64,000 nucleotides of DNA, from assembly GCA_035221665.1 (NCBI GenBank), contig CM069134.1, positions 43,710,001 to 43,774,000 of the forward strand. Reading direction: 5' to 3'. Shown here piece by piece: positions 10,329 to 63,303 of the stretch. Position numbers and translations under genes: made by a program. Below the pieces are notes generated by a model that did not search any database, was not told the DNA's origin, and was given only the letters and a program-made list of their open reading frames with translations. The DNA is from Okamejei kenojei (taxonomy: Eukaryota). Position 1 is the stretch's first letter; each line of letters starts with the position of its first letter.

Positions 10329-12672
10329 AATGTCACGGATTGGAATGTGTTCAGGGAAGCAACCACAAACCTCGATGAGTATACAGACACTGTCTCATCA
10401 TATGTCAGCTTTTGTGAGGACAGTTGCATTCCAACTAGGACCCGGGCCTGGTTCAACAATGACAAGCCCTGGTTTACTGCAGAACTCAGTCAGTTCCGAC
10501 AGTCTAAAGACGAAGCAGATCTCTTCAGGCAGGCAAAAGTACAAGATGAGAAGAGGAATCAGAGCTGCCAAGGAAAGGTAGTCTGAGAAGTTGAGAAGTT
10601 GAGGAGCAAGTTCTCAGCTAGTGACCCTTGGAAGGGCTTGCATGAAATCAAGAGGAAAAGCTCCTGCTCTTTGGACAATTGTCAGCTGACCAACAACCTG
10701 AATGAGTTCTACTGCAGGTTTGACAAGCAGAAACGTAACCCTGGTACCCCCTTCCCCCTCCCCAACCAACACAGCCAGACCCCAGTCTGCAAAGTCAGGA
10801 CCCTTCTACACCCACTCCTCTCCATTCACCACTTCACACCTACTTAAAGCAAGACTCCAGTCTGGAAAGACTGGACCCTTTCCCACCCCAACCAACACTT
10901 CACACCCACTCACAGCCTGACCCCAGTCTGCAAAGACTGGACCTTTCTACACCCTCTCCTCCTCAATCACCACTTCACACCTACTTAAAGCAAGACTCCA
11001 GTCTGAAAAGACTGGACCCTTTCCCACCCACCCCTCTCCAATCACCACTTCACACCCAATTACACATCCCCTCCGTGCTGCATAACATCATTTCTCCATC
11101 ATCAACAATAAAAATAAAGGAGGTGGAGAGGTTGTTCAGAAGACAGAAAAGCCGGAAATCTCCAGAACCCAACAATGATTCCCCCTCTACTCTCAAGCTC
11201 TGTGCCGAACTGGCACTGGTCTACACAGACATTTTCAACCAGTCCTTGCAAACCTGTACAGTCCCTGCCTGCTTCAAAGTCTCCACTATTGTCCCTGCAC
11301 CCAAAAAGGCAAAGATTACTGGTCTTAATGACTACAGGCCTGTCGCACTGACCTCTAGCATCATGAAGACCCTTGAATGGCTTGTGCTGGTCAAGCTGAA
11401 AAATATCACGAACCCCCAGCCGGACCCTCTGCAGTTTGCATATCGGGCCAATAGATCTGTGGATGATGCAGTCAACCTGGGCCTGCACGTCATCCTCCAG
11501 CACCTAGACCGCCAGGGGACCTATGCGAGGATTTTGTTTGTTGATTTTAGCTCTGCATTCAACACCATTGTGCCAGAGCTACTACACTCCAAACATTCCG
11601 AGTTGACTGTGCCTTAACCCCTCTGTCGGTGGATCACCAGCTTCCTGACAGACAGGAAGCAGCATGTGAGGTGGGGAAAGCACATCTCGGACCCGCAAAC
11701 CCTCAGCATAGGAGCACCGCAAGACTGCGTACTCTCCCCTCTCCTTTACTCTCTCTACACCAATGACTGCACCTCCACTGACTCCTCTGTCAAGCTTCTC
11801 TAGTTTGCAGACGACACAACCCTGATTGGACTGATCCAGGATGTGGAAGAATCTGCCTACAGACAGGAAGTGACATAGCTGGTGGCCTGGTGCCATCGCA
11901 GCAACCTGGAGCTCAATGCTCTTAAGACAGCAGAATTGATAATAGACTTTAGGAGAGCTCCCCCTCCCCTCACCCCACTCACTATCAACAACACCACAGT
12001 CACATCTGTGCAGTCTTTTAAGTTCCTGGGAACCATCATCTCCAAGGACCTTAAATGGGGGGTACCATTGATACCACAGTCAAAAAGGCACAACGGAGGA
12101 TGTACTTCCTGCGGCAGCTGAGGAAGCACAATTTGCCACGGGCAATGATGGTCCAATTCTACACGGCCATCGTAGAATCTGTCTTCACCTTCTCCATCGT
12201 GGTTTGGTTTGGCTCAGCCAACAAGCACGACATCCAGAGGCTGCAGCGAATCGTCCGATCAGCTGAGAAGGTTATTGGCTGCAACATTCCCTCCATTGAT
12301 GAACTGTACACGGCAAGGGCCAGGAAGCGAGCGGGTAATATCATCTCTGACCCCTTTCACCCTGGCCACAAACTCTTTGAATCACTTCCCGCTGGAAGGC
12401 GACTCCAGACTGTCAAAGCTGCCACAGCCAGACATAAAAACAGCTTTTTTTCCACGAGTAGTAGCTCTTTTCAATAACCAAAAATCTGTAGCCTCCTTTT
12501 GCTCTGGTATTTTATTTAATTCACATGTTTAATCAATAATGTTTTATTATTAACGTTTAATGTTTTGTGTCATTCCTAACTGTCACTCAATGTCGTTGTC
12601 ACTTGCGGGCAGAGCACCAATCCAAATTCCTTGTGTGTGAATACTTGGCCAATAAACTTATTCATTCATTCA
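10329..12672 (+). mobile_element. Rex1/Babar LINE, 5'-truncated, RT pseudogene
   Basis: DWNVFREA...NNDKPWF, NDYRPVALTS, DPLQFAYRANRSVDDA, ARILFVDFSSAFNTI, FADDT (tttgcagacgacaca), FKFLG, KKAQRRMYFLRQLRK. Ends with aataaa and a (ttca)n tail. Confidence 0.93.
10775..11060 (+). repeat. Tandem repeat block inside the Rex1 element
   Basis: gaccccagtctgcaaag / gactccagtctg(g/a)aaagactggaccct...cacttcacacc recurs four times. Confidence 0.8.
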
Positions 12673-16904: not shown

Positions 16905-18135
16905 TTCAATAGACAATAGGTGCAGGAGTAGGTCATTCGGCCCTTCGAGCCAGCACCGCCATTTAATGTGATCATGGCTGATCATCCCCAATCAGTACCC
17001 TGTTCCTGCCTTCTCCCCATATCCCCTGAGTCCGCTATTTTTAAGAGCCCTATCCAGCTCTCTCTTGAAAGCATCCAGAGAACCTGCCTCCACCGCCCTC
17101 TGAGGCAGAGAATTCCATAAACTCACCACTCTCTGTGAGAAAAAGTGTTTCCTCGTCTACATTCTAAATGGCTTACTCCTTATTCTTAAACAGTGGCACC
17201 TGGTTCTGGACTCCCCCAACATCAGGGAACATGTTTCCTGCCTCTAGCGTGTCCAAGCCGTTAACAATCTTGTATGTTTCAATGAGATTCCCTCTCATCC
17301 TTCTAAACTCCAGAGTGTACAAGCCCAGCTGCTCTATTCTCTCAGCATATAACAGTCCCGCCATCCCGGGAATTATCCTTGTAAACCTACGCTGCACTCC
17401 CTTAATAGCAAGAATGTCCTTCCTCAAATTAGGGGACCAAAACTGCACACAATACTCCAGGTGTGGTCTCACTAGGGCCCTATACAACTGCAGAAGGACC
17501 TCTTTGCTTCTATATTCGATTCCTCTTGTTATAAAGGCCAACATGCTATTCGCTTTCTTCACTGCCTGCTGTACCTGCATGCTTACTTTCATAGACTGAT
17601 GTCCAAGGACCCCCAGATCCCGTTGTACTTCCTGTTTTCCCAACGATACCATTTAGATAGTAATCTGCCTTCCTGTAGCATAACCTCACAATTATCCGCA
17701 TTAAACTTCATCTGCCATGCATCTGCCCACTCCCCCAACCTGTCCAAGTCACCCTGCAATCTCATAGCATCCTCCTCACAGTTCACACTGCCACCCAGCT
17801 TTGTGTCATCTGCAAATTTGCTAATGTTGCTTTGAATCCCTTCATCCAAATCATTGATGTATATTGTAAATGGCTGCGGTCCCAGCACCAAGCCTTGCAG
17901 TACCCCACTAGTCACTGCCTGCCATTCTGAAAGGGAACCCTTAATCCCTACTCTTTGTTTCCTGTCTGCCAACCACTTCTTTATCCATGTCAGCACTCTG
18001 CCCCTAATACCATGTGCCCTAATTTTGCCCACTAATCTCCTGTGTGGGACCTTATCAAATGCTTTCTGAAAGTCCAGGTACACTACATCCACTGGCACTC
18101 CCTTGTCCATTTTCCTAGTTACATCTTCCAGAAGA
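16905..18135 (-). mobile_element. CR1/HER1 LINE 3' part with RT remnant
   Basis: VDVVYLDFQKAFDKVPH, VTSGVLQG, ISKFADDTKL, LYRALVRPHLEYCVQFWSP. Tail caatagacaataggtgcagg. Confidence 0.95.
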
Positions 18136-18327
18136 TTTCTGAAAAATACCAAAAAAGTTCTGATGATAAAACTGATAAAAATAATATTTGAAATATCAAT
18201 TTGAAATAAAATTACCATGAAATTTGTGCACGAATATCCATAAACAACAAGCATCAGCTGATTTAGTCTTTTGGGCAACTGAGAAGAGTCGGCATGTTCA
18301 CGAGTATTCTTTCATATTTAAGAGTCA

Positions 18328-23205: not shown

Positions 23206-23755
23206 TCATAGAAACATAGAACATAGAAAAATAGGTGCAGGAGTAGGCCATTCGGCCCTTCGAGCCTGCACCGCCATTCAATATGATCATGGCTGATCAT
23301 CCAACTCAGTATCCCGTACCTGCCTTCTCTCCATACCCCCTGATCCCTTTAGCCACAAGAGCCACATCCAACTCCCTCTTGAATATAGCCAATGAACTGG
23401 CCTCAACGACCTTCTGTGGCAGAGAATTCCAGAGACTCACCACTCTCTGTGTAAAGAATGTTTTCCTCATCTCAGTCCTAAAGGAATTCCCTCTTATCCT
23501 TAGACTGTGACCCCTTGTTCTGGACTCCCCCAACATCGGGAACAATCTTCCTGCATCTAGCTTGTCCAACCCCTTAAGAATTTTGTAAGTTTCTATAAGA
23601 TCCCCCCTCAATCTTCTAAATTCCAGTGAGTACAAGCCGAGTCTATCCAGTCTTTCTTCATATAAAAGTCCCAACATCCCAGGAATCAGTCTGGTGAACC
23701 TTCTCTGAACCCCCTCTATAGCAAGAATGTCTTTCCTCAGATTTGGAGACCAAAA
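23206..23755 (-). mobile_element. CR1/HER1 LINE 3' fragment
   Basis: catagaaacatagaacatagaaaaataggtgcagg tail. WSPNLRKDILAIEGVQRRFTRLIPG...FKRELDVAL in an open frame. Confidence 0.95.
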
Positions 23756-23759
23756 CCAA

Positions 23760-25190
23760 AACTGCCAACAAGCAGTCATTTCTGTTCCTTGTGCAACTTT
23801 TCCTTCTACTTGGGTGTTCCTTGGATCAAGGGTGATTTGCTCCCACTCCAGTTTTGACGAGGCAGGGGATGTCTGATTGATAGGTAGAGGTTGGTAGTTT
23901 GTGAGGTTCCGCACTCTTTCTGCTGTGTGCTCTCAACACATCCCAAATACTCCTTCTCCACTTTGGGAGGTCAAGCATTCCAGAGTCAAGCAGGACGTTG
24001 AAGTTGTTCAAGAAGGCTTCATGCATATCCTTGAATCTTTTCCTTCTTGGTAATGTGTTCACAACAGAGTTTGGAAAAGCATCAGTTTTGGTCATCTGAT
24101 TTCAGAAATGTGCACAGCCTTTCCTATAGAGCAGGTTCACTGCAACTAAGCCATGATTGTTGGGGATGTCACCGTCTGAATGTAAACAGTGATATTAGCC
24201 AACTTATGCTTACAGTGAATTTGGAAGGTTATGCAGAAACTATGTTGTAATATTTTTCATGTAGCGATAGATGGTTTCTGTCAGAAATTTATGGAAGGAT
24301 GTTGATCGCTGCTACCTGTTGGACTATTGTGCCATTCTTAGATCTTGATCTTCAAATAACCTTTTCCTTTGTCAACCCAACGTTGTGCTGATGCATTGAA
24401 ATCTGGTAATGAATATCATCGTTGATATGCATCTTCACTGTCTGGTACCTCCTGAGATTCGGGAAGTGTTTTGGAACATTTTCCAGACTCCAGTGTGAAT
24501 CTTAATTGTTGGTGGCCCGTGTGTTACTGTGGATAGTTTAGTTTAGTTCAGCGAAACAGGCCCTTCGGCCTAACGATTCCACGCCGACCAGCGATCCTAC
24601 ACACACCAGGGACATTTTACAATTTTACAAGGCCAATTAGCCTACAAACCTGTACGTCTTTGGAGTGTGGGAGAAAACCGGAGCTCCCAGAGAAAACCCA
24701 CGCAGGTCACGAGGAGAATGTACTCCATACCGACAGGATCGAATGTAGGATTGAATCCTGGTCTCTGGCGCTGTAAGGCAGCAATCCTACCTTGCCATGC
24801 GATACAGAAAAAAATGACAGCCTTTGTCATGCAGATGTCGTGTGCAAATTCCATCATCTCATTTATATCTCTGTGAATAAGGTGCAATGGCTTGGAGCCA
24901 AGTCTCTCAGCATACAAGACCAGTGCAGTCTGCACACCTGCACTGCAACTAATGAGGTTGTGGCATTGTAGTCACCACAGGTTGAACATTGTCAAGTTCT
25001 AAATCGTATCTCCACTCCCGCGAGGCTTGGAGTCAAGATGCAATGGTGCAAGAGTAAGCGACAGGGAATGATGCAACCTTGTTTGACACTGATCTTTTGG
25101 ATTATTGTTCGCATGCTGTCATAAAGCAAATTTAAACCAATGACAAATGTCTGAGGAGAGCCAAAATTGAGGAGGGCATTTGGCCATTTC
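23760..25190 (-). mobile_element. Degenerate RTE-clade LINE
   Basis: Minus-strand peptides ISVKQGCII (cf. RTE GVKQGCVL) and PRRKRFKD...WRRSIW (RTE C-terminus). Interrupted by a SINE. Confidence 0.55.
24535..24800 (-). mobile_element. HE1-type SINE
   Basis: agtttagtttag tail. cctacaaacctgtacgtctttggagtgtgggagaaaaccggag...ggtctctggcgctgtaaggcagcaa. Confidence 0.85.
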
Positions 25191-44435: not shown

Positions 44436-46694
44436 TGTTTAGCAGGCCATTCTGTACTTCAGGCACTCTACTTAACATTCTGACTTGCCCAATGTTGTTA
44501 GACTTTCTAATAAACCAAACAAAATCCTGGAATTACGCAAAATAACTGGTAGCATCAGTGGAGGGAGCAACAGAGTTAAATTGAAGGTTAATGATCTTTC
44601 AGTAGAATAAGGATGTTAAAACCTCCCGTTCTCTCTTGAAGTGTATGATCTGTGCCCTAAATAAGTGAATAACACTTATCCCACAATTCTGTTCATCACT
44701 ACTCGGGGATAGTAGCACATTTCTCGGTCATATATCAATACATATACAACATGAACAAAATCCAACATAAATATATATAAAAACCACCTCTGGCAAGGTA
44801 CTCAGTTACGTTGAGCTATAAAGATAATTCAGCTTGCTTGAGACTACACGAGTCAAGGAATGTAGGGTTTCTGCAATATGAGTGTTCTTACCATAGCTGC
44901 AAAATAAATATCTAATCACAACTTTACAATATTTTTAACTTTGGATGTTTAAATGTGGTTTCAGCCTTCCTGAGTTATTAGCTTCTGTAATCCTTCGAGC
45001 ACATCCTTCGAGCACAAGTTACAAATGGTCCCCTCAAAGAAGTTCAGGTCAATATCAGGGGGAAAAAAAAGCTGCTAGCTACAACATTCTGCAAGAATTT
45101 TCACAGCAGATACTTGAGGTGTTTGATGCTAAAGATCAGCACAGGCTCTATAATTTAAATCCAATTTTAGTCCAACAGACGCCAATTTGAACCCGAACCA
45201 AACCTGGTGAATTATAGAAAATTTCTGAAACAGGACGTTGTCCCAAAAAGACTATATGGGTAAAGAAAGCTGCATCTGCCAAAAATGTTAAAGCTATATC
45301 ACGTTTTGATTCTGCAATCTAAACACAACATCATGGGACCGTTCAGCCACCCTGAACACTGAATTTACAAGTTTGATGATCAGGGACCATAACCAAATTC
45401 AAAGTCAGTTCCGTAGCTCAGCTCTGAATAAACAGCCGAGTATTAGTTAATTTATTTATACAGTCAGCCAACCGAATCTGAGCCAAGCATGTGGGCTCAT
45501 ATTTTGTTTTGATACCTGACCTGACCTAAACATGACACATATAGTTGGTTCCATTGGGCTCAAGTAAGCTAGTCGGGTTTTGCCTGGTTCAATGATTTAA
45601 TGTCTGCAGGTGAACATTGCTACAGAACCATTTAGCATGCATTAACATTTTCCTTGGACTCCTTCAGCGAGTGAGAGAGGGAGGCCAGAGCTGCAGTTTG
45701 CTCCTCTGTGGAGTAAGAACACTTCTTCATGGAACAAAAGGCAATACAGGCACTGTCTGCTGCAGAGGAACAGCACACCATTGCACTAGTGTGCCTGACT
45801 CCAGGAAGCAGTGTATATTTTGTTGCTCAAGAAGGAACTGCAGATGAAGGAAAATCGAAGGTAGACAAAATTGCTGGAGAAACTCAGCGGGTGCGGCAGC
45901 TAATTGTTTAAAAATTACGATGGTTTAGCATCCTTAACCATAGTTGTGCACCAGAGGTGCAACCAGGTTGGGGTTCAGAATAGCAGGAGTTAGGAAGGTG
46001 GGTAGATTTGTGGTTGGAGCCAAGATCCAAATTGCTTGCATTTTTCCTACTTGCTTTCAAACTCACCAGGTTCATTACATCACTGTATAAAAAGTTTTTT
46101 AAAACGTGAAATAAATGTATGTTTGGATTTTAATTGGAGTAACATCCAATAGTACAGAAAATCTGATGGAACGCACATCAAAGCCCCTTGGGTGCTGGAT
46201 TATCAGAGTTTTGCTGTGGTGGTGTTATGTTTGATCACAATCCCCAAGAAGCATCCGCTCACGTACCAAAATACAAAGGAGGAGATTAAATTAGAGGGAC
46301 ATGTTTCGTAAAGGGACACACTCACATCAATAGGCTGCAGTTGGGCCGGAGGAGAAGGGGAGTTACAGTCATAATGCATTGAAGTAGAGTCAAGTCACAA
46401 TGTTTACATAAGCAGTGTCCAGCATGTCACGATGGCTCCATGAGATGCAGAAATCCATTTCCACATTTTCCCAGAAGCTGGCAGAGTCAGGTGGACCTCA
46501 CTTGCACTTTGAAAGTAATTTACTTATCAGTTTTGGCAATGGCAATGCTAAGAAAACAAGGTGGCCTAACTGCTTCGATGAAGGCTGAGTCCATCCTCAG
46601 AGCTCCGCTAACAGATGTGCGTCTGGTGAACAAGTGATGGATTAGTTAGTACTTAATTTAATTTTTAAAAATCTCCATACAGTAAAGATAGTTT

Positions 46695-46877
46695 AATAAA
46701 GCAAAGTAAATCAGGACCTGATTCACAAAGTTAATTTCTCAGATTCTAACAATTAAATAATTTTACACATTTTTCAACCAAGAGAGGTTTGATAAAGCAA
46801 AGTAAATGCCTGGACCTGTTTCACAATGTTAATTTGTCAGATTCTAACAAAAAAAATATATACATATTTTTCAACCA
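46695..46877. repeat. About 95-bp direct tandem duplication
   Basis: ataaagcaaagtaaat...ggacctg...gttaattt...cagattctaacaa...ttttcaacca occurs twice. Confidence 0.8.
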
Positions 46878-48332
46878 TTCAACTAGTGAATAATATAAAA
46901 TGAAAAACCGCTTTTTTTTCCATTCCTAATCCCAGACTAATTTTATAGTAAATCTATTAACAAACATTAAAAAAATCATCTTTTTTGGTAAATGTCTACC
47001 TCCATTTCTGAGTACTAATGCCATTAAAACATAAACTTTTAGAAATTAGCTATAATAAAAATCCACATTGAAGGCAAAACATAAAGGAGAACACAGTGCT
47101 ATTTTTCTTGAATGAACTATTTTCATTTAAAAAAATACAATTGGTTGACAATAAAAAGTGCAATAGCCTAATTGCACGTCTTCTACAACTATAGGACAGA
47201 GAAGAATGGACAGATAAAGAAATTCAATGTCATTTGGACTTTGGAGTCTCAAACTGCAGATCTTAGAATAACCAGCTACCCCCACCCTCCCTACATCCCC
47301 TCCCCACCTTTGTTTCTCCCAGCAGGCCCAAAGGCTTTCAAACAAAACCTGAATGACAGCTATGGGCTATTCCAGCCTCATTGCTGATCATCCATGCCAA
47401 ACAGGATAGATCTCTCTTAAGTACACTTCCCAGGCATCTTTGCAATCAGGGCCCACCACACATTTCAAGGGGAGGTGGGGGGAGGGGAAATTATAAATAG
47501 AATAGCAGATGCAAACTTTACGCTAAACAATGTCACTAAATCGATAATGGATCTGATGATTATTGGAAGATGGGCCTTGCTAAATGACATGTATCCCATC
47601 TTTGATTTTTCATCGTTTCTATATTTACTGTAACATTGGTTGTACATAATGTCATCAAGGGCGGCATTATCTACAAACACCATCAAGTGTCCTACAGCAA
47701 CAAAGACCTGCTCACAGGAAATCAATCCCCTCGGGACAGATGGCCCGTGTTTCAAGTGGCATCTCCCTTCTTATTTGAAAAAAACTCAATCAGCATTTTC
47801 TGTTTCCTAGCAACATTCAAAGGAATTATTTGCATGACTAAAGCTTAAATAGATAGCAAGGACAGTGCCAGAGATTTCTGCAATATATGAGCCACAGTAG
47901 TACATTTAAGCTGGTCATTTAACAATGCAAAATGTATTTTTAACTGATCAGATCTAGTTAACAACTGCATTGAGATATAGTGTGTCAGTCGATTAATGAC
48001 CACTTTCTTACTCTGAAGATTTTCCCTATTCACCAATGAACACGAGGTGCAATTATTTTCTGCTTTTGTTAGTTGGTTTAGTTCCTGTTGTAAAATAAAC
48101 AGCTTGCTGAAAGATGATTCCTATTCAACAACTCTAAGCAATTATTGTTTGCTCTGTGATTCTCTCTATTCCCGTTCAAAGATATTCCAGTTAAATTATT
48201 GAACAAGATTTGAAATGAGTCATCAGATCTATACATTGAAGATATTTTCCCTAAATGGCTTAGCTGTGAGAAGAAAATAGCCCCAGTATGTCTGGATCCT
48301 GCAGTGATCCAAAATAAAGTGTACATATCTGT

Positions 48333-48447
48333 GTGCGTATATATATATATATATATACGTATATATATATATATATATAGTGTATACACACACACGAATG
48401 TATATACAAACACATAAACACACAGATATATATATATATAGAGATAG

Positions 48448-48498
<51 letters not shown>
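48333..48498. repeat. Compound (TA)n/(CA)n microsatellite
   Basis: Direct reading. A Penelope-derived unit follows at about 48499-48590. Confidence 0.95.
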
Positions 48499-48499
<1 letters not shown>

Positions 48500-49702
48500 C
48501 TGAAGGGTCTTGACATGAAACGTCACCCACTCCTTCTCTCCAGAGATGCTGCCAGACCCGCTGAGTTACTCCAGATGTGTCTACCTATGTGTGTGTATAC
48601 ACTAGTGTGAGTATATATATCATATATACACATATAGAAATGTACACATACATGTGGGTTTAATGTGTGTGTGGCAAAAGTGTATGGGTGGGGTGGTGTG
48701 CTTGGGAGGGGAAGGGGGGGGGGAGGCTGAAGGAGATGGTGGCCTTAAGGATTGTTGACAATCAATTTTGCCATTCTACCGCAGGGAAAATGAGACAGAA
48801 AGAGCATCAGCTCAGAAACTGAGCTGCGAATAGGAAGACCATCTGGATTGTTTAACCACTTTGTTTGCCCCCAAGAAAATAAATCAATAGTTTGGGAGAA
48901 CCTTCAATGAAAAGGGTCTCTGGATCAAACGTGTCACCTATCAGATTGTGTGTCTCTTTCTTCGAAGGCATCCTCAAAAATTTATAAATACCTGCATTGC
49001 CCCAGCTACTGCATAAACTGAACAAATCTTACATTCAAATCTTAATATTTGTAATAGTCACGTAAACTTCACTAAAGATTGCAAGTACTCTTCAGATTCG
49101 TCTCACTGAATATCATACTTTTGAGCTGCATTTATATTCTCAAAATATCCCACAATTCGCTCTGCTTTAAACTAGCAATTTGCATTATTTTGTGCTTCAG
49201 TGCATAACCTATTCTAAATATGCTTTCATTAATGTTAAATACTGACAAGATTCAGGAATGTTATTTCATAAATTGCCAAGCGAAATATATTGCCGGTTAA
49301 TTTATACCCAAGATCTACAATTTTATACAAGCGAAAGTGAGGAGATGGAGTGAAATTTAAACTATTGTGCCCATAAAATTAAAAATAATTTTCTAAAAAT
49401 GTATAGTTTTATCAATCTACGTCATATTTCTGCATTTCAGGATCATGTCTTAATTTTCAAAACATTCTCTGGTTCTCTCACTTTAACACTCATATTCCAA
49501 GATCACGACCTCAGATAATGTGAAGTTCATGGGCCATTCAAGAACAGAAGAGAGAACGGCATGTTTTGCTGTAGATCACAACAAAATGCAGCAGCTGTTT
49601 CAAAATGAGAAGAGATTTTGAAGTAAAACGAATAATGAAAAAGGTACACTTAATAAACGAGTATATTTCACGTGAGAGCATCCCAAACACTTGATTAGAA
49701 GT

Positions 49703-49924
49703 GTGTAGGAAAGAATTGCAGATGCTGCTTTAAATCGAAGGTAGACACAAAATGCTGGAGTAACTCAGCGGGTCAGGCAGCATCTCTGGAGAGAAGGAAT
49801 GGGTGACGTTTCGGGTCGAGGAGTTTCGGATCGAGAATGGGTAATGTTTCGGGTTGGGTCTGAAGAAGGGTATCGACCCGAAACGTCACCCATTCGACCA
49901 GAGATGTCTCGACCCGAAACGTTA
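49703..49924. repeat. Rearranged inverted Penelope-derived unit (continues at about 50762-50825 after the Rex1 insertion)
   Basis: gtgtaggaaagaattgcagatgc...gggtgacgtttcgggtcgag, then ggtctgaagaaggg...gaaacgtcaccc. Resumes cattccttctctccagaga...ttactccagc. Confidence 0.8.
49855..49892 (+). ncRNA. Putative minimal type I hammerhead ribozyme
   Basis: Stem I tgggt/accca. Core CUGAAGA plus one extra A. Stem II gggt-atcg-accc. GAAA. Loopless stem III with palindromic ACGU. GUC cleavage triplet ending at 49887. Confidence 0.65.
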
Positions 49925-50762
49925 CAGGATTCCTCCCCATCCTGGATCAGTCCATATCCTCCCCATCATGTGTCACAGCTGGCGTCCTGGTGCCTTCGTA
50001 ACAACCTGGAGCTCAATGCTCTAAAGACAGTGGAATTGATAGTAGACTCTCCTCCCCCCACTTACCATCAACAACACCACTGTAACATCTGTGGAGTCTT
50101 TTAAGTTCCTTGGAACCATCATCTCCAAGGACCTTAAATGGGAGGCCACCATCAACTCCACAGTCTAAAAAGTCCAACAGAGGATGTACTTCCTGCAGCA
50201 TCTGAGGAAACACTATCTGCCGCAGGCAATGATGGTCCAATTCTACACGGCCATCGTAAAGTCTGTCCTCACATTCTCCATCATGGTCTGGTTTGGCTCA
50301 GCCACAAAGCATGACATCCAGAGACTGCAGCGAATCGTTCGATCAGCTGAGAAGGTTGTTGGCTGCAACCTTCCCCCCCATTGACGAACTGTACACTGCA
50401 AGGGCCAGGAAGCGAGCGGATAAGATCATCTCTGACCCCTCTCACGCTGGCCATAAACTCAGAAGCACTTCTCTCTGAAAGGAGACTCCGGACTGTCACA
50501 GCCGCCACAGCCAGACATAAAAACAGCTTTTTTCCACGATCAGTAGCTCTACTCAATAACCAAAAGTCTGTAGCCTCCATTTGCTCTGGTATTTTATTTT
50601 CATTCACATGTTTAAACTATAATGTTTTATTCTTCATGTTTTAATGTTTTATGTTTTATTCTTAATTGTTTGATGTATGTTGTGTTGTTACTTGTGAGCA
50701 GAGCACCAAGGCAAATTCCTTGTATGTGTACATACTTGGCCAATAAATTTATTCATTAATTC
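49925..50762 (+). mobile_element. Rex1/Babar LINE 3' fragment with short 5' inversion
   Basis: Near-identical to 11870-12670 (NNLELNALKT, MYFLQHLRK...). Ends with aataaa and a ttca-type tail. Confidence 0.92.
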
Positions 50763-51171
50763 ATTCCTTCTCTCCAGAGATACCGCCTGACCTGCTGAAT
50801 TACTCCAGCATTTTGAGTCTACTTGTGGGTAGAAATTCAGTGGCATAGCAATATTTTTATCAGCAATTACATCTGAAGTGGAACACAAACGTAAACACTT
50901 TCAGATTAAGTCATGAGAATCTGGAATCGCAATCAATCAGACTTTCGGTTGCTGGGACATTGTCTCAGTTGGATGTGCATTGAATTATGTTATATCTCAT
51001 ACAAAAAGTGTATGAGATATAACATCAGAAAATGTTATATCTCATACACTTTCAGAAAAAAGGTTTACATTGTTCTGAAGCACACCTGCTCTTGGGCAGT
51101 CACAACCCAACCAGTTGCACTGTTTCTAAAGCATTTGAAGACCAAGTAATATTTTATTAAAAATGTAATAA

Positions 51172-51296
51172 AAAGGAACTGCAGATGGTGTTTAATACCA
51201 AAGACAGACACAAAATGCTGGAGTAACTCAGTTTGACAGGCAGCATCTCCGGAGAAAATGGATAGATGACTTTTTGGGTAGGGACACCCTCAGACT
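51172..51296 (-). repeat. Penelope-derived unit
   Basis: aaggaactgcagatgg...gacacaaaatgctggagtaactcag...cagact. Confidence 0.75.
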
Positions 51297-51551
51297 ATAT
51301 ATTTTATGTTTGAACCTCTCTGGAAGTGTGAATACGAACCATGCAGTTGGCCAGCAATTCATCTGAATATCCCATTCCATAGTTCTACCACAAATCCAGA
51401 CACGTACACCTTTGTGGAACTAATTTGATGTTTAATGAAAACAACAGCCATTTACTTATTCTTAATAGACCAGGGCCTATGTTCACACATTATTGTGCAG
51501 CATGCCATGGTCATTTTTAAACAACACTGGACCTCACATACTGAACAAGAG

Positions 51552-51798
51552 AAACAAGATACAAGAGAGTTTATTGTCATGTGTCCCAGATAGCACAACA
51601 GAATATAGAAGGCATGAATACAGAACAGATCAGTGTGTCCATATGCCATTATATAAATACATACACACATGAATAAATAAAACAGATAAAGTGCAAATAA
51701 ACAGATAATGGGCTATTAATAATGTTCAGAGTTTTGTTTGAGTTGAGTTTAATAGCCTGATGGCTGTGGGGAAGAAGCTGTTTCTGAACGTGGACGTT
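51552..51798 (-). mobile_element. Rex1-type LINE 3' tail
   Basis: caagagagtttattgtcatgtgtcccagatag...gatggctgtggggaagaagctgtttctgaac. Confidence 0.65.
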
Positions 51799-51813
51799 GG
51801 TAAGTAATATTCT

Positions 51814-54042
51814 TTTTTTTTTTGTAAGATATTTTTATTAGAAGTAATTACATATTAAGAAGAAATATAAAATCCAATTAAAGCAAAAGAAAATATTAAC
51901 GTCACATACATTCTTAATATTTTTAAAGTTAACAATCAATCTTATTTGTACTTCTATAATTTTCTTTTTTATTTTATAGCAGTAGGAAATAAAAAAGGGA
52001 AAAAGAAAAGAAAAAAAAGAGAGATAAACTGATTGAGTGGAATATTAATAGAATATTGACTGGCCTTGAGGGGGATACGACATATATTGCCTGAAGTAGA
52101 TTCATATTGCCCGAGTCGAAGACGAGGGCAATATGGATCTAGTGAGGGCAATATATGTCGTATCTCCCGAAAGAGGACAGTCAATATTGTTATTATTACC
52201 CATTATCAGACATCTAGAGGAAAATCTGAACATCTCATATGATATGAATGTATCTATACATTTTGCAATATGCATTGCAACATTGTAAATAAGGGTACTA
52301 AAACCATTGCAACATTGTAAATAAGGGTACTAAAACCATTGCAACATTGTAAATAAGGGTACTAAAACAATGTAACATTTATGTTTCATTTATGTAATTT
52401 ATGTAATTCATTTATGTGACAATGTGAAGGTCGAACTTTTAAAATCGCGAACCTCTTCTCGCAACCGGCTGCCATTTTGTTTGTTTTGAGAATAAATTTT
52501 AAATTTCGCACGCAGCGTCACGTTGCCGTCACGCAGCGTCACGTTGCCCAAGTCCCATCCCGGATGTGAGACCAGGGGAATATAAGACATTCCCCGCTGT
52601 TTAACAGGTAAAGTCCATAGGCGTTCGCTCCATCTGAGGTATGGTTTTACCAAATCATATTACTTCATTTTACTGCCAGCAGGGCTAACAGGGGAATATT
52701 TTCTTATATTCCCCTTTCTAGCCAACCCCTATGGAGTTTGCCTGTTTAAACAGCGGGGAATATAACCTTATATTCCCCTGGTCTCACATCCGGGAACGTG
52801 ACGCTGCGTTGACGCTGCGTGGGAAATTTAAAATTTATTCTCAAAAAAAAAAAAAATGCTGCCGTTTGCGAGAAAAGGTTCCCGTTTTAAAACTTCGACC
52901 CTTCACATTGTCACATAAATGAATTGACATAAATTACATAAATGAAACATAAATGTTACATTGTTTTAGTACCCTTATATACAATGTTGCAATGGTTTTA
53001 GTACCCTTCTTTACAATGTTGCAATGCATATTGCAAATGTATAGATACATTCATATCATATGAGGTTCAGATTTTCACCTCTAGATGTTGATAATGGGTA
53101 ATAATAACAATATTGACTGTCCTCTTTCGGGAGATACGACATATATTGCCTCACTAGATCCATATTGCCCTCGTCTTCGACTCGGGCAATATGAATCTAC
53201 TTCAGGCAATATATGTCGTATCCCCCTCAAGGCCAGTCAATTATTCTATTAATATTCCCCTGTTACCCCTGCTGGCAGTAAAAAGGAAGGGAATACAATT
53301 TCGTAAAAGCATACCTCAGATGGGTGATATGGGTAATAATAATAGAATATTGACTGGCCTTGAGGGGGATACGACATATATTGCCTGAAGTAGATTCATA
53401 TTGCCCGAGTCGAAGACGAGGGCAATATGGATCTAGTGAGGGCAATATATGTCGTATCCCCCGAAAGAGGACAGTCAATATTGTTATTATTACCCATATC
53501 AGACATCTAGAGGAAAATCTTCTGTCAAAAGTCGCGAACCTCTTCTCGCAGGAGGCTGCCATTTTGCTTGTTTTGTCGAGAACAAATTCTAAATTTCCCA
53601 CGCAGCGTCACATTGCCAAGTTCCCGGATGTGAGACCAGGGGAATATAAGACTATATTTACCGCTGTTTTAACACGTAAAGTCCATAGGCGTTCGCAAGA
53701 AAGGGGAATACAAGAAAATATTCCCCTGTTAACCCTGCTGGCACTCAAAACGAAGGGAATACAATTTTGTAAAAGCATAGCTCAGATGTGTGATATGGGT
53801 AATAATAAACAAGATATTCTTCAATGGAGATATATTTATGATCTATTGTCTATAATTCTTCATCCATTCATACATTCAGGCTTCCGTCATGGCTTCGAAC
53901 CGGACCATCTTGACCCTTTAAATATTCAATAAATGGAGACCATATTCCTCTGAACTGGTCCAGCCTGTCCATCAGGGCAAGCCTTAATCGTTCCAAGTGT
54001 AACGTCTCCGACATTTCTGTAATCCACATTTTAGTTGTGGGG
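51814..54042 (-). mobile_element. L1/Tx1-clade LINE 3' fragment with 15-bp TSD, split by a nested palindromic element
   Basis: ggtaagtaatattct at 51799-51813 and 54043-54057. Poly-T (poly-A tail) starts at 51813. PTTKMWITEMSETLHLERLRL...IWSPFIEYL is homologous to the peptide at 25854-26005. Confidence 0.85.
52046..53807. mobile_element. Multimer of a hairpin-bearing non-autonomous element (Crypton-like)
   Basis: Three copies of a unit that begins taatagaatattgactgg and contains a ~137-bp imperfect hairpin. The copies are forward (52046-52628), inverted (52630-53258) and forward (53340-53807). Bounded by taata, with no conventional TSD. Confidence 0.6.
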
Positions 54043-54168
54043 GGTAAGTAATATTCTAAAAGGCAATTGTTCAAGGCGATCACACAGGCTCCATAGTGCA
54101 AAAGGGAGTTTACAATAATTAAATTAACATAATTCTGCCAGCAGTGCAAAACTATCTTTTAATAGTTT

Positions 54169-54289
54169 AAGAAGGAACTGCAGATGCTGGAAAATCGAAG
54201 TCTGAAGAAGGGTTTCGACCCGAAACGTTGCCTATTTCCTTCGCTCCATAGATGCTGTCTCACCCGCTGAGTTTTTCCAGCATTTTTGT
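54169..54289 (+). mobile_element. Penelope-derived insertion with 17-bp TSD and inverted 5' piece
   Basis: ctatcttttaatagttt at 54152-54168 and 54290-54306. The insert is aagaaggaactgcagatgctgg (reverse orientation) joined to tctgaagaagggtttcgacccgaaacgttg. Confidence 0.88.
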
Positions 54290-55389
54290 CTATCTTTTAA
54301 TAGTTTTCTGTTAGAAGCTACCAGATCCGTTTCACTTTCATAAGTACTCTACCCGGCAAATGTCTTGTTAAAACATTTCACAGGAGCATATTGACTTAAA
54401 TCATTATGATTATTGTCAGCACTTAACAAGGAAAGAATAATCACTTTGGAAGTAGTTGTGGGAAAGTTCCTTTCAGTCCTACTATTCACGTTATTTTCTT
54501 CAGCTCCACACCAGGCAATTCAAAAGAAAGAGAATCCATACATTCATGAAGCCTCCATTGCAACATAATTGATCTGTGTGCACAACTCCAGTGATGCACG
54601 GACATTACTACTTTCATATCATTACAGTGAACCCCCAGCATCACCAGAACGTATGCAGAGAACTCCTGTTGTCTCCTCAAAACTAAATTCCACTCCAGGC
54701 ACAGTATGATGCACACCAAATGGTCTAGTGAATCCAACAATAGGTGAGCAGCTCTCCTGAATGAGACTTTGGTGGAAGAGAAACTATACAGCAGACGTCA
54801 AATGTCACCTTATTTCTGGCATTTTAGCAGACTGTTGTTGGCTGCGGAAGCTGTTTCATTGTGCGTAACATGAACTCTGCTGTCCTTTCTGTGAGATGCT
54901 TAGTCACGGAAGTCGAGTTTTTATTTCATTAAATTTCATTGATAAATACTGATAATTAGCTGGCTCTAAATAAACAAACCATCACCTAGCTCATCCACAT
55001 TTCGGAGCCAATGCAAGTTGCCATCACCGTTTGCTACTCAAGAGTACCATGTAGGTGCGTTTACAGAAGGTGATGACCAATGTATCCACTTTAAAGTATA
55101 TTAGAAATATATCCTACACGTTACTTCTTTCAAATGTGGCACAGAACACTGTATTGTGAAGATCAGTGAAAGAATCCACTAACTGTTGTGTTGCATTGAT
55201 TTTTCATTCTTTAACCCGTAAAGCTTAAACCTCTGAAAATGAACAGTAATGAGATGATAATGAGGAAGACTGTTCTACAGGGCATTTGTTTACCCCATAG
55301 TAAACTGCACTCTTATAATGTTTGAACATTTGTATTCTGATGAACATTTTATAAAGATTTTCAAAATGATAATTACCAATTTTGTTGAA

Positions 55390-57308: not shown

Positions 57309-58519
57309 GAATCATAGAATCATAGAAAAGGTGCAGGAGTAGGCCATTCGGCCCTTCGAGCCTGCACCACCATTCAATATGATCATGGCTGATCATCCAA
57401 CTCAATATCCTGTACCTGCCTTCTCTCCGTACCCCTTGATCCCTTTAGCTACAAGGGCCACATCTAACTCCCTCTTAAGTATAGCCAATGAACTGGCCTC
57501 AACTACCTTCTGTGGCAGAGAATTCCACAGTGGCAGAGACTCACCACTCTCTGTGTGAAAAATGATCTTCTCATCTCGGTCCTAAAAGACCTCCCCCTTA
57601 TCCTTAAACTGTGACCCCTTGTTCTGGAGTTCCCCAGCATCGGGAACAATCTTCCTGCATCTAGGCTGTCCAACCCCTTAAGAATTTTGTAAGTCTCTAT
57701 AAAATCTCCCCTCAATCTCCTAAATTCAAGCGAGTACAAGCCAAGTCTATCCAGTCTTTCTTCATATGGAAGTCCTGCCATCCCAGGAATCAGTCTGGTG
57801 AACCTTCTCTGTACTCCCTCTATGGCAAGAATGTCTTTCCTCAGATTAGGAGACCAAAACTGTACGCAATACTCCAGGTGTGGCCTCACCAAAACCCTGT
57901 ACTACTGCAGTAGAACCTCCCTGCTCTTGTACTCAAATCCTTTTGCTATGAATGCCAACATACCATTCGCTTTCTTCACAGCCTGCTGCACCTGCATGCC
58001 TACTTTCAATGACTGGTGTACCATGACACCCAGGTCTCGTTGCATCTCCCCTTTTCCTAATCGGCCACCATTCAGATAATAGACTACCCTCCTGTTTTTG
58101 CCGCCAAAGTGGATAACCTCACATTTATCCACATTATACTGCATCTGCCATGCATTTGCCCACTCACCCAACCTATCCAAGTCACCTTGCAGCCTCCTAG
58201 CATCCTCCTCACAGCTAATACTGCCCCCCAGCTTCATGTCATCCACAAACTTGGAGATGTTGCATTCAATTCCCTCATCCAGATTATTAATATATATTGT
58301 AAATAGCTGGGGTCCCAGCACTGAGCCTTGCGGTACCCCACTAGTCACTGCCTGCCATTCTGAAAATGACCCGTTTACTCCTACTCTTTGCTTCCTGTCT
58401 GCCAGCCAGTTCCCTATCCACATCAATACTGAACCCCCAATATCGTGTGCTTTAAGTTTGTATGCTAATCTCTTATGTGGGACCTTGTCGAAAGCCTTCT
58501 GAAAGTCGAGATATAACAC
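57309..58519 (-). mobile_element. CR1/HER1 LINE 3' 1.2 kb, RT largely in frame
   Basis: ORFs 57902-58528 (YLDFQKAFDKVPH...GVPQGSVLGP...KFVDDMKL) and 57503-57892 (RPHLEYCVQFWSP). Tail gaatcatagaatcatagaaaagg. Confidence 0.95.
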
Positions 58520-58564
58520 ATATAGCACAAGAGCATGTGAGGTGGCTTATGGAACATAGATTAG

Positions 58565-59790: not shown

Positions 59791-59902
59791 CATTATTATA
59801 TTGTTTACAGTGTATTATGCTTACATATTCTGTTGTTCGGCTGCAAGTAAGAATTTTGTCGTTCAATCTGGGACATATGACGATAAAACAATCTTGACTC
59901 TT

Positions 59903-60235
59903 GAATTCAATCTTCATACCGTTGTGTTGTAAACTACCCAAAAAGAATATGAGGTGCTGATCCTCCAGTTTAGGTGCGACCTCATTCTCGCAGTGGAGGA
60001 TGCCCAGGACAGATAGGTCAGTATGGGAATGGGAAGGGAATTAAACGGATTAGCAACCGGAAGATCTAGCAGGCCATGACCAAACGCAAGAGTATCTGAT
60101 GAAGGAAAGATTTGGATAAGAAAGGATATGTAAACCCTCATTGTGAATTTTCAGTTGGAGATAGAAACAGGCAGTGCCAGGTTGGGGAACTATAAGGTTG
60201 GAAGATGTGGAGAGGCAATTGTCCTATCTGGGACA
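59903..60235 (-). pseudogene. Penelope-like element C-terminal (GIY-YIG-side) remnant
   Basis: Frameshifted minus-strand peptide LPVANPFNS...GILHCENEVAPKLEDQHLIFFLGSLQHNGMKIEF resembles the PLE ORF end. Confidence 0.7.
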
Positions 60236-62289: not shown

Positions 62290-62980
62290 ACTTCAACAAT
62301 ATTGCACAACTCCTGCCTCAGTTCCTTTGAAGTCTACATCAATGTCTTTATAAACTCCTAACCTGACCGTGTATTCAATGCAAACTAGCTGGCCTCCATC
62401 ATTCTATTCTCCATAAACTCTCCACACAAAATTCTGCTGCCAGTCCCTTACTGACACCAGAGTCTGAAGAAGGGTCTCGACCCGAAACGTCGCCTATCTC
62501 CTTCGCTCCTTAGATGCTGCTGCACCCGCTGAGTTTCTCCAGCCTTTTGTGTACCCTTACTGACACCAAATCCCATTAGCACATCACTGCTATCTTTGCT
62601 CCTCTATACTGGCAACAGTTTTGCGTTTTTAAACTTTCATGCTCACTTTCAATACCCTTCCTGTCCTCGCTAATTCAAATTTCTGTAATCTACTATAATC
62701 TTTTCCCTCACAGAAATATCTCAACTCCTCAAATTGTTCATTCAGTGGCCAATGCCCTAAGATTTGGAATTTCCATCCAAAACCCATCTACCACCCAATA
62801 TCTCATTGCTCTCCTAAGATATTCCTTAAGAACGACTTCAAATCATTGACTCTAATATCTTATTTTGTGCTATGACATGAATGTCTGTTTGTTAATGCTA
62901 CCATAAAGCAACAAATAATTGAAAACTTGAAATATTTTGTTGTGTTAATGGCACCAATTAGATGTAAATTGATGTTGCAC
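62290..62980 (+). mobile_element. Degenerate L2-clade LINE 3' end
   Basis: caaaattctgctgcc...catcactgctatctttgctcctctatactggc resembles L2 (QNSAAR...HITPVL..LHWL). Tail ends gatgtaaattgatgttg. Confidence 0.5.
62460..62553 (+). mobile_element. 94-bp Penelope-derived insertion with 15-bp TSD and complete hammerhead core
   Basis: cccttactgacacca at 62445-62459 and 62554-62568. Insert reads gagtctgaagaagggtctcgacccgaaacgtcgcc. Confidence 0.9.
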
Positions 62981-63054
62981 CTGATTTTGCATAGATCGTC
63001 AACCAGGGAATAAAATGTAAGGCAATTGGAGGATAAAACAACCAGACCAATGCA

Positions 63055-63303
63055 CCAAAGACAGACACAAAATGCTGGAGTAACTCAGCGGGACAAGCAG
63101 CATCTCTAGATAGAAGGAATGGGTGACGTTTCGGGTCGAGACCCTTCTCCAGACAGTCTGAAGAACTCAGTCTGAAGAAGGGTCTTGACCCGAAACGTCA
63201 CCCATTCCTTCTATCCAGAGATGCTGCCTGTCCTGCTGAGTTACTCCAGCATTTAGTGCCTATCTTCAGTGTAAACCAGCATCTGCAGTTCATCTCTACA
63301 CAG
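63055..63303. repeat. Inverted dimer of the Penelope-derived hammerhead unit
   Basis: About 90-bp arms: atgctggagtaactcagc...gggtgacgtttcgggtcgagacccttctccagac / gtctgaagaagggtcttgacccgaaacgtcaccc...gagttactccagcat. Confidence 0.88.

Follow-up and report, generated by a model that had tools for sequence, protein, structure and literature searches.

Minimal hammerhead ribozymes have been described in the ends of Penelope-like elements (PLEs), fish Neptune elements included, where they occur as widespread single copies with low activity in vitro (PMC4209133). The inverted copies and tails of PLEs are likewise published (PMC8557442), and the same work marks endonuclease-bearing (EN+) PLEs of the Neptune and Nematis groups by a CX2-5CxxC linker between the reverse transcriptase (RT) and the endonuclease (EN). 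In vitro experiments on PAc, the Poseidon element of Anolis carolinensis, revealed internal priming at two sites and extension of both strands, with unprocessed RNA as the main substrate and cleavage only in the presence of protein (PMC11167929). Retrozymes, the other hammerhead carriers relevant here, consist of units of 170-400 nt in tandem, carry canonical hammerheads and form circular RNAs, and the axolotl genome holds 126,247 canonical hammerhead motifs (PMC7229834). Retrozymes have been connected with PLE ends in a 2026 preprint (bioRxiv 10.64898/2026.07.22.740005).

We analyzed a 64,000-nucleotide stretch of the Okamejei kenojei genome (the window), in which an earlier note had flagged a minimal hammerhead at 49855-49892. 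It is likely, in our judgment, that this motif is the minimal type I hammerhead of the pseudo-LTR of a Neptune-type PLE, and that the flagged copy is a stub of that element and likely inactive. Our literature search, with repeat databases outside it, returned no paper on hammerheads or on this PLE family in skates, rays or sharks, and the searched supplement of PMC4209133 contains no terms for these animals. In the 2026 preprint, one chondrichthyan genome was sampled, with minimal models inside tandem repeats; its supplements may bear on novelty.

The hammerhead motif and its surroundings

The flagged motif lies on the plus strand and comprises the core CUGAAGA (49860-49866), an extra A (49867), stem II (49868-49879), GAAA (49880-49883) and CGUC (49884-49887), which places the CUGANGA, GAAA and UH elements in type I order at 49860-49887. 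Positions are numbered from C3 of the core (window 49860) as 0. C17 falls at 49887, the coordinate named in the earlier note, and cleavage after this putative site would leave a 5' end at +28. The letters at 49855-49892 were also as first reported, and the excised 38 nt are predicted to fold into the 5-bp stem I and 4-bp stem II at -11.4 kcal/mol, an energy close to that of shuffled sequences (z -1.12; 26 of 200 shuffles as good). Helix III has no loop, and the ACGU at positions 15.1-16.1 is self-complementary, as had been noticed; across copies, the palindromic 15.2-16.2 pair is CG in the majority, with CpG decay. All eight positions listed earlier as further examples do carry the motif. The suggested check against the Rfam hammerhead models, in turn, gave no match at the gathering threshold and none at E<=10 in 49600-50100; weak matches to Rfam miRNA models arise because of the local hairpin.

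The core, the additional nucleotide separating 9 from 10.1, the pairing of G10.1 with C11.1, the palindromic 15.2-16.2 and the missing loop 3 all correspond to the minimal hammerheads of PMC4209133. In this family, the extra A is present in 156 of 166 copies and the 10.1-11.1 pair is G-C or G-U in 70 of 80.

Comparison with other repeats showed that the flagged locus is a head-to-head pair of pseudo-LTR pieces, with a long arm on the minus strand and a short arm on the plus strand (-2 to +91) that is split by a LINE. The long arm (49708..49820, minus) is an inverted copy of +12 to +122 that includes the tail and lacks the 5' half of the core. The short arm begins with a piece from -2 to +35 (49858..49895, plus; 97% to the natural copy L011) and ends with the remainder, +31 to +91, at 50762..50822 (plus). 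The interrupting LINE fragment (49928..50763, plus) is 5'-truncated and was recognized by its similarity to an RT-bearing LINE copy at 11870-12672, with 84% identity over 49970-50763; we take it to be Rex/Babar-like. Small duplications are found at the junctions of the pair, with a short inverted duplication of the hammerhead 3' half at 49835..49854 (minus) and a short direct duplication of +10 to +29 at 49906..49925 (plus). Inspection by eye revealed no clean target-site duplication (TSD) around the pair and no host exon among the open reading frames of 45500-54500.

Stem I owes its outer three pairs to TGG at 49855..49857 (plus), a junction filler in the place of the CCA of the native element, whose leader before the core is CCAGT. 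The resulting GGGT/ACC form of stem I occurs in only 605 copies genome-wide, the flagged copy included. Furthermore, 23 nt of the long arm are fully complementary to 49873-49895. The RNA of 49780-49930 is predicted to form one hairpin (-80.3 kcal/mol, z -8.66), within which the fold model assigns stems I and II of the flagged copy a probability of 0. Because its inverted neighbors are predicted to bury the motif, the flagged copy is doubtful as a cleaver. It is atypical and probably inert.

Other repeats are present in the window. An RT-bearing LINE with an ALKBH8_N match lies at 10739-12477 (plus), and LINE fragments, presumably CR1-like, occupy 17173-18311, 23306-23932 and 57503-58546 (minus). 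A coding-looking unit is repeated on both strands at 51969-53932 and contains 32-bp tandem repeats at 52273-52379 and 52952-53026. At L131:7648-8850 (plus), one of the other loci studied, a 401-aa open frame resembles by eye a retroviral envelope fragment.

The parent Penelope-like element

A decayed C-terminus of a PLE GIY-YIG endonuclease at 59900..60040 (minus) served as the first probe for the parent element. At many loci, this C-terminus precedes the motif by approximately 110-220 nt on the same strand, and the similarity search also found longer RT-EN frames with the motif behind them. An N-terminal probe retrieved near-complete copies, 20 of which were examined. L134 and L138, which are 98.1% identical, consist of a hammerhead, an 1185-aa open reading frame (ORF) and a second hammerhead, with 3955 bp between the two hammerheads. 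The motif is carried in both pseudo-LTRs of L134, L136, L137, L138 and L150; this placement, and the prevalence of dispersed single copies, are shared with the elements of PMC4209133. The identification of the motif as a PLE-type minimal hammerhead is thereby borne out, a parent PLE having been found in which it flanks an RT/GIY-YIG frame.

The 1185-aa protein matches RVT_1 (E 5e-6) and GIY-YIG (E 0.004), both below the Pfam cut-offs, and has 13 long homologues, the best at 38-49% identity. A CNRKKCNTC linker (CxxxxCxxC) between RT and EN and the CCHH residues are visible in the translation P0015 (L134:2615-6172). A PDB sequence search with the RT-EN part gave no matches, and neither did Pfam with two short C-terminal fragments and the 47-aa piece from the window. 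As a separate observation, residues ~160-460 of P0015 form a long insert, rich in Pro and Ala, that separates the conserved N-terminus from the RT-proximal region; homologues of the protein are 800-1130 aa long. A splice-donor-like AAG/GTATGC at L134:2610-2618 overlaps the first ATG of the ORF.

A single ORF with RT, linker and, at its C-terminus, a GIY-YIG bearing CCHH is the organization of the Neptune/Nematis PLEs in PMC8557442, which also share the partial tandems, the inverted 5'-truncated copies and a 30-40 bp tail at one end. The upstream pseudo-LTR runs through a tail of ~33 nt into the 5' UTR and the downstream one stops before it; a tail on one pseudo-LTR only is the PLE tail signature. 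Together with pseudo-LTRs, inverted copies, the optional 30-40 bp tail and variable TSDs, the family displays the traits of EN+ PLEs. It differs from the PLEs of PMC8557442 in its long 1185-aa ORF with a Pro-rich insert and in its very short stubs with a fixed start, which vastly outnumber long copies. Poseidon elements, in contrast, have no linker finger, and the ORF of PAc starts inside the hammerhead (PMC11167929), whereas the ATG here lies 162 nt after C3. The parent thus appears to be a Neptune-type PLE, a clade assigned from motifs rather than from a tree and with marks that fit Neptune or Nematis.

Copy number, stem I and core conservation

A pattern of core plus stem II matched 13 times in the window at <=3 mismatches, four times exactly, and not once in 100 shuffles. 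The window holds 26 family pieces, some of them tail-only or split. Among these are a young solo stub from -3 to +93 with an intact core (62461..62557, plus; 99% to the intact element L134), which is bounded by a TSD of 17 nt with one mismatch; a second head-to-head pair at 63041..63302 (both strands), with cores at 63152 (minus) and 63172 (plus); and a solo stub of another subfamily at 54199..54291 (plus), which has an intact core, a GUU triplet and U.G as the first stem I pair. In a few solo stubs (window 54202, L170:6528, L161:9790), only an inverted 30-nt tail precedes the stub. Tandem arrays of a 54-bp unit that matches the pseudo-LTR tail and lacks the hammerhead were seen in L004, L006, L007, L009, L010 and L082.

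Genome-wide, core plus stem II has 79,838 exact matches, and a 32-mer of the family 10,981; the reversed controls gave 0 in both cases. A 682-kb sample of the 2.76-Gb genome (the window, two flanks and 60 stretches of 10 kb taken at even intervals) contained 315 family pieces, which extrapolates to ~1.27 million per genome. The core is kept in 35 of these pieces, and core plus stem II in 20. The latter fraction extrapolates to 80,820 intact motifs, in agreement with the direct count. The earlier proposal of a very large, potentially self-cleaving population therefore holds with respect to the number of intact cores, but only a small part of the family (20/315) retains core and stem II. The ~80,000 intact copies compare with ~4,000 in coelacanth and ~9,000 in Xenopus (PMC4209133) and are close in scale to the axolotl count (PMC7229834).

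The native stem I is short. It measures 2 bp in every one of 26 intact motifs that have the native leader, and 14 of the 20 intact copies in the sample agree, so the 5-bp stem described earlier is unsupported as a family feature, its outer three pairs being filler at the flagged locus. In an alignment of the flagged locus with the first 79 of 140 eligible copies (n=80), these outer positions are paired in 10, 21 and 37 copies and are specific to the flagged locus, and the inner two are paired in 72 and 68. With helix II at 4 bp and helix I at 2 bp, the motif is smaller than that of Schistosoma (7-8 and 4-5 bp), although helix I is also 2 bp in D. virilis (PMC4209133). A longer native stem was sought in a variant whose core is preceded by one additional C (100 copies), where stem I is 0-1 bp in 20 of 20 examined, and in the 400 nt upstream of L134, where the only partner for the stem I 3' strand is a split duplex at ~-264. 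Fold predictions, with models that ignore core tertiary energy and protein, indicate that the native RNA prefers folds other than the hammerhead.

The same 80 copies, all from one genome, were used to assess covariation of stems I and II. Neither pairing (69.9% vs 69.6% in shuffles) nor the covariation score (0.146 vs 0.143; 155 of 500 shuffles as high) rose above shuffles, and the check suggested earlier thus came out negative. Where subfamilies of this single genome differ in their stems, the change is one-sided only, from U-A to U-G or from G-C to G-U; the lack of compensatory changes sets the family apart from the minimal hammerheads of PMC4209133.

Core conservation gave a divided picture. 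Clustering of 415 copies on the tail alone yielded six subfamilies, whose majority sequences vary at 0 of 11 core positions and at 3 of 32 across the whole motif vs 18 of 56 in the tail (P 0.019), in a set that includes loci selected by exact motif. In 140 unbiased copies, core mismatches amount to 7.2-7.5% vs 10.0-11.7% in the tail, a gap that narrows under finer clustering; this comparison leaves out the ACCCATTCC group set, in which references with different indels are mixed. The anticipated excess conservation of the core is therefore seen in its lower mismatch rate, which could hint at constraint at the level of copies, but not in two other respects: invariant tail columns of the unbiased set equal the core in conservation (0.91-0.96), and the trend is reversed in 13 young copies (core 6/117, tail 11/595 mismatches). 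We read this as a core conserved while the lineage is active, inserted copies being under no clear constraint.

It is unlikely that the intact copies act as a very large ribozyme pool that cleaves host transcripts as ACGU-joined dimers. Such a pool would draw on 79,838 intact cores, on a core fixed across subfamilies and on tandem copies lying 185-570 nt apart, and the excised 38-mer is predicted both to fold as drawn and to cofold as a dimer. However, the native stem I is 2 bp, stems I and II have a predicted probability of ~0 in native and local contexts, the ACGU duplex is worth only -1.7 kcal/mol by prediction, and there is neither covariation nor a peak of 5' ends at the cleavage site. 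Related dimers cleave weakly in vitro (PMC4209133), but eight of nine Xenopus dimers remained uncleaved in the preprint (bioRxiv 10.64898/2026.07.22.740005). This analysis yielded no evidence that the ~80,000 intact cores cut host RNA. In sum, the PLE-type minimal hammerhead and its large population stand from the earlier description, and a 5-bp stem I as a family trait, covariation and a potential for self-cleavage in most copies do not.

Ends of the insertions

Insertion boundaries, being set by local alignment, carry an uncertainty of a few bases. In the sample of 315 pieces, 124 have their 5' end at -10..-1. The ends concentrate at -6..-1 (106/315) rather than in the cleavage-site zone at +25..+31 (10/315), and the lack of a pile-up there speaks against self-cleavage of most copies. 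At the other end, 152 pieces finish at 78-100, 121 at >=110 and 42 elsewhere. Stubs thus mostly start 2-4 nt before the core and finish at ~+90 or +120-130. TSDs of at least 10 nt flank 20 of 82 solos (control 0.7%) and 11 of 56 head-to-head pairs (control 1.1%): the stubs are separate insertions with target-site duplications. Within the 56 pairs, a long and a short end are joined in 36 of the 44 that could be classified (permutation mean 22.2, P 6e-5). Some solo stubs, for instance those at window 62461, L048:4807 and L177:9288, have a few additional bases separating the TSD from the AGT start, which is what non-templated addition at run-off would produce.

Longer copies were traced through the 5' UTR of the young subfamily, which has 658 exact matches genome-wide. 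Among 30 of these UTR-bearing loci, the start falls at -5..+4 in 10, upstream of -10 in 10 and at +15 or later in 10; L254 starts at -3 and continues for more than 1.5 kb into the ORF. In seven of the 30 rows, the sequence restarts at -4..-1 after an internal stretch (L257 and L258 being one array). Native pseudo-LTR sequence upstream of -10, found in 10 of the 30 and in L134, L136, L137, L138 and L150, requires a template jump or a read-through RNA. The L257/L258 array (G000:C1:112453033-112453236) consists of three tandem 185-nt units, each starting at -4..-1; a jump at a microhomology within the beginning of the ORF appears to have produced it, and it is retrozyme-like in miniature.

Slightly less probable than a host-directed ribozyme pool is that the constant 5' boundary corresponds to a splice acceptor (pyrimidine tract, CAG/U) at helix I, by which an upstream exon would lengthen stem I. 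A pyrimidine tract and CTRAC/CAG do precede the motif in most subfamilies, yet the short copies share no upstream exon, and only a few bases separate their TSDs from the AGT start. The bases at -4..-2 of short copies resemble the exon-end consensus; AG at -3/-2 is nevertheless kept in 11 of the 13 solos nearest the young subfamily. Splicing has a precedent in Penelope of Drosophila virilis (PMC4209133), and PLE intron data are available in PMC2377424. In our data, however, a join of the L134 donor-like site to the acceptor-like site was found 0 times in 1.56 Mb, and there was no GT-AG among the 15 joints listed (79 others) from RNA-run contigs, some of which are probably DNA.

The family resembles non-LTR retrozymes in being short, non-coding, hammerhead-bearing and high-copy (PMC7229834; bioRxiv 10.64898/2026.07.22.740005). 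We consider it very improbable that the stubs make up a retrozyme or SINE family of non-autonomous kind, spreading via its own cleaved or circular RNA, since their units start before the core rather than at the cleavage site, the young ones are 98-99% identical to the intact PLE and no canonical helix I or III is present. This reading would account for the huge copy number, short size and TSDs and for the three-unit tandem with its 185-nt period, and the preprint derives retrozymes from PLE ends. Against the tandem organization of retrozymes, the copies here are mostly solo or head-to-head (56 pairs among 315 pieces); tandems make up 4 of 128 short copies, and head-to-tail arrays of 170-400 nt units are represented by the one rare 185-nt array. 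That the hammerhead likeness arose by chance in a high-copy repeat is hardly credible and is largely refuted by the PLE context: despite the absent Rfam match and covariation and a fold energy no better than shuffles, the ordered core, extra base, G10.1-C11.1 and palindromic 15.2-16.2 equal the published minimal hammerhead (PMC4209133), and the motif sits where one would look for it, in the pseudo-LTR of a PLE.

A model for stub formation

The preferred reading remains that of stubs shed by a PLE. Because copies start just before the core and not at the cleavage site, their ends suggest that most stubs were copied from uncut RNA. We lean towards a course in which the element RNA would start at about -3 and the PLE protein would prime internally at two tail sites near the RNA 5' end, with copying passing through the uncleaved hammerhead and running off to leave a stub of 95-130 nt. 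Inverted pairs would arise when both target strands are primed, and tandem forms when copying jumps template at the RNA 5' end. Since stem III is missing and stem I has 2 bp, the hammerhead would cut only slowly, in dimeric form and aided by protein; it would be maintained in the active lineage and decay in inserted copies. The missing peak at +28 does not prove that cleavage is absent, since cleaved RNA might not be a template. The CCAGTCT at the proposed RNA start fits an initiator pattern, and loose ends of RNA-run contigs before L134:2449 repeat the genomic boundary (4 of 24 runs, two probably DNA).

This putative mechanism agrees with the in vitro experiments on the Anolis element (PMC11167929). 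The two families share a pair of 3' end classes ~30 nt apart, and in both the hammerhead would be uncut in the copied RNA, as judged here from copy ends. Head-to-head junctions have instead been ascribed, as a proposal, to self-priming on antisense RNA (PMC3846280).

A bolder extension, which we offer as doubtful, is that the mRNA starts three bases before the core, that the approximately one million stubs are strong-stop-like run-off cDNAs and that the hammerhead is a dose-dependent switch. If so, the stubs would record the building of PLE pseudo-LTRs by jumps at the RNA 5' end, and a protein-assisted dimer would cut off the capped first 31 nt and thereby limit the element's own expression.

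The role of hammerheads in PLEs has been called unclear (PMC8557442). With minimal hammerheads, inverted copies and tails already described, the remaining interest of this family probably lies in the fossil evidence for uncleaved templates and for a start at -3. The genome offers apparently intact young elements alongside about a million insertion fossils with countable ends. These fossils predict a precise RNA start, which makes the role of the hammerhead testable in one vertebrate element.
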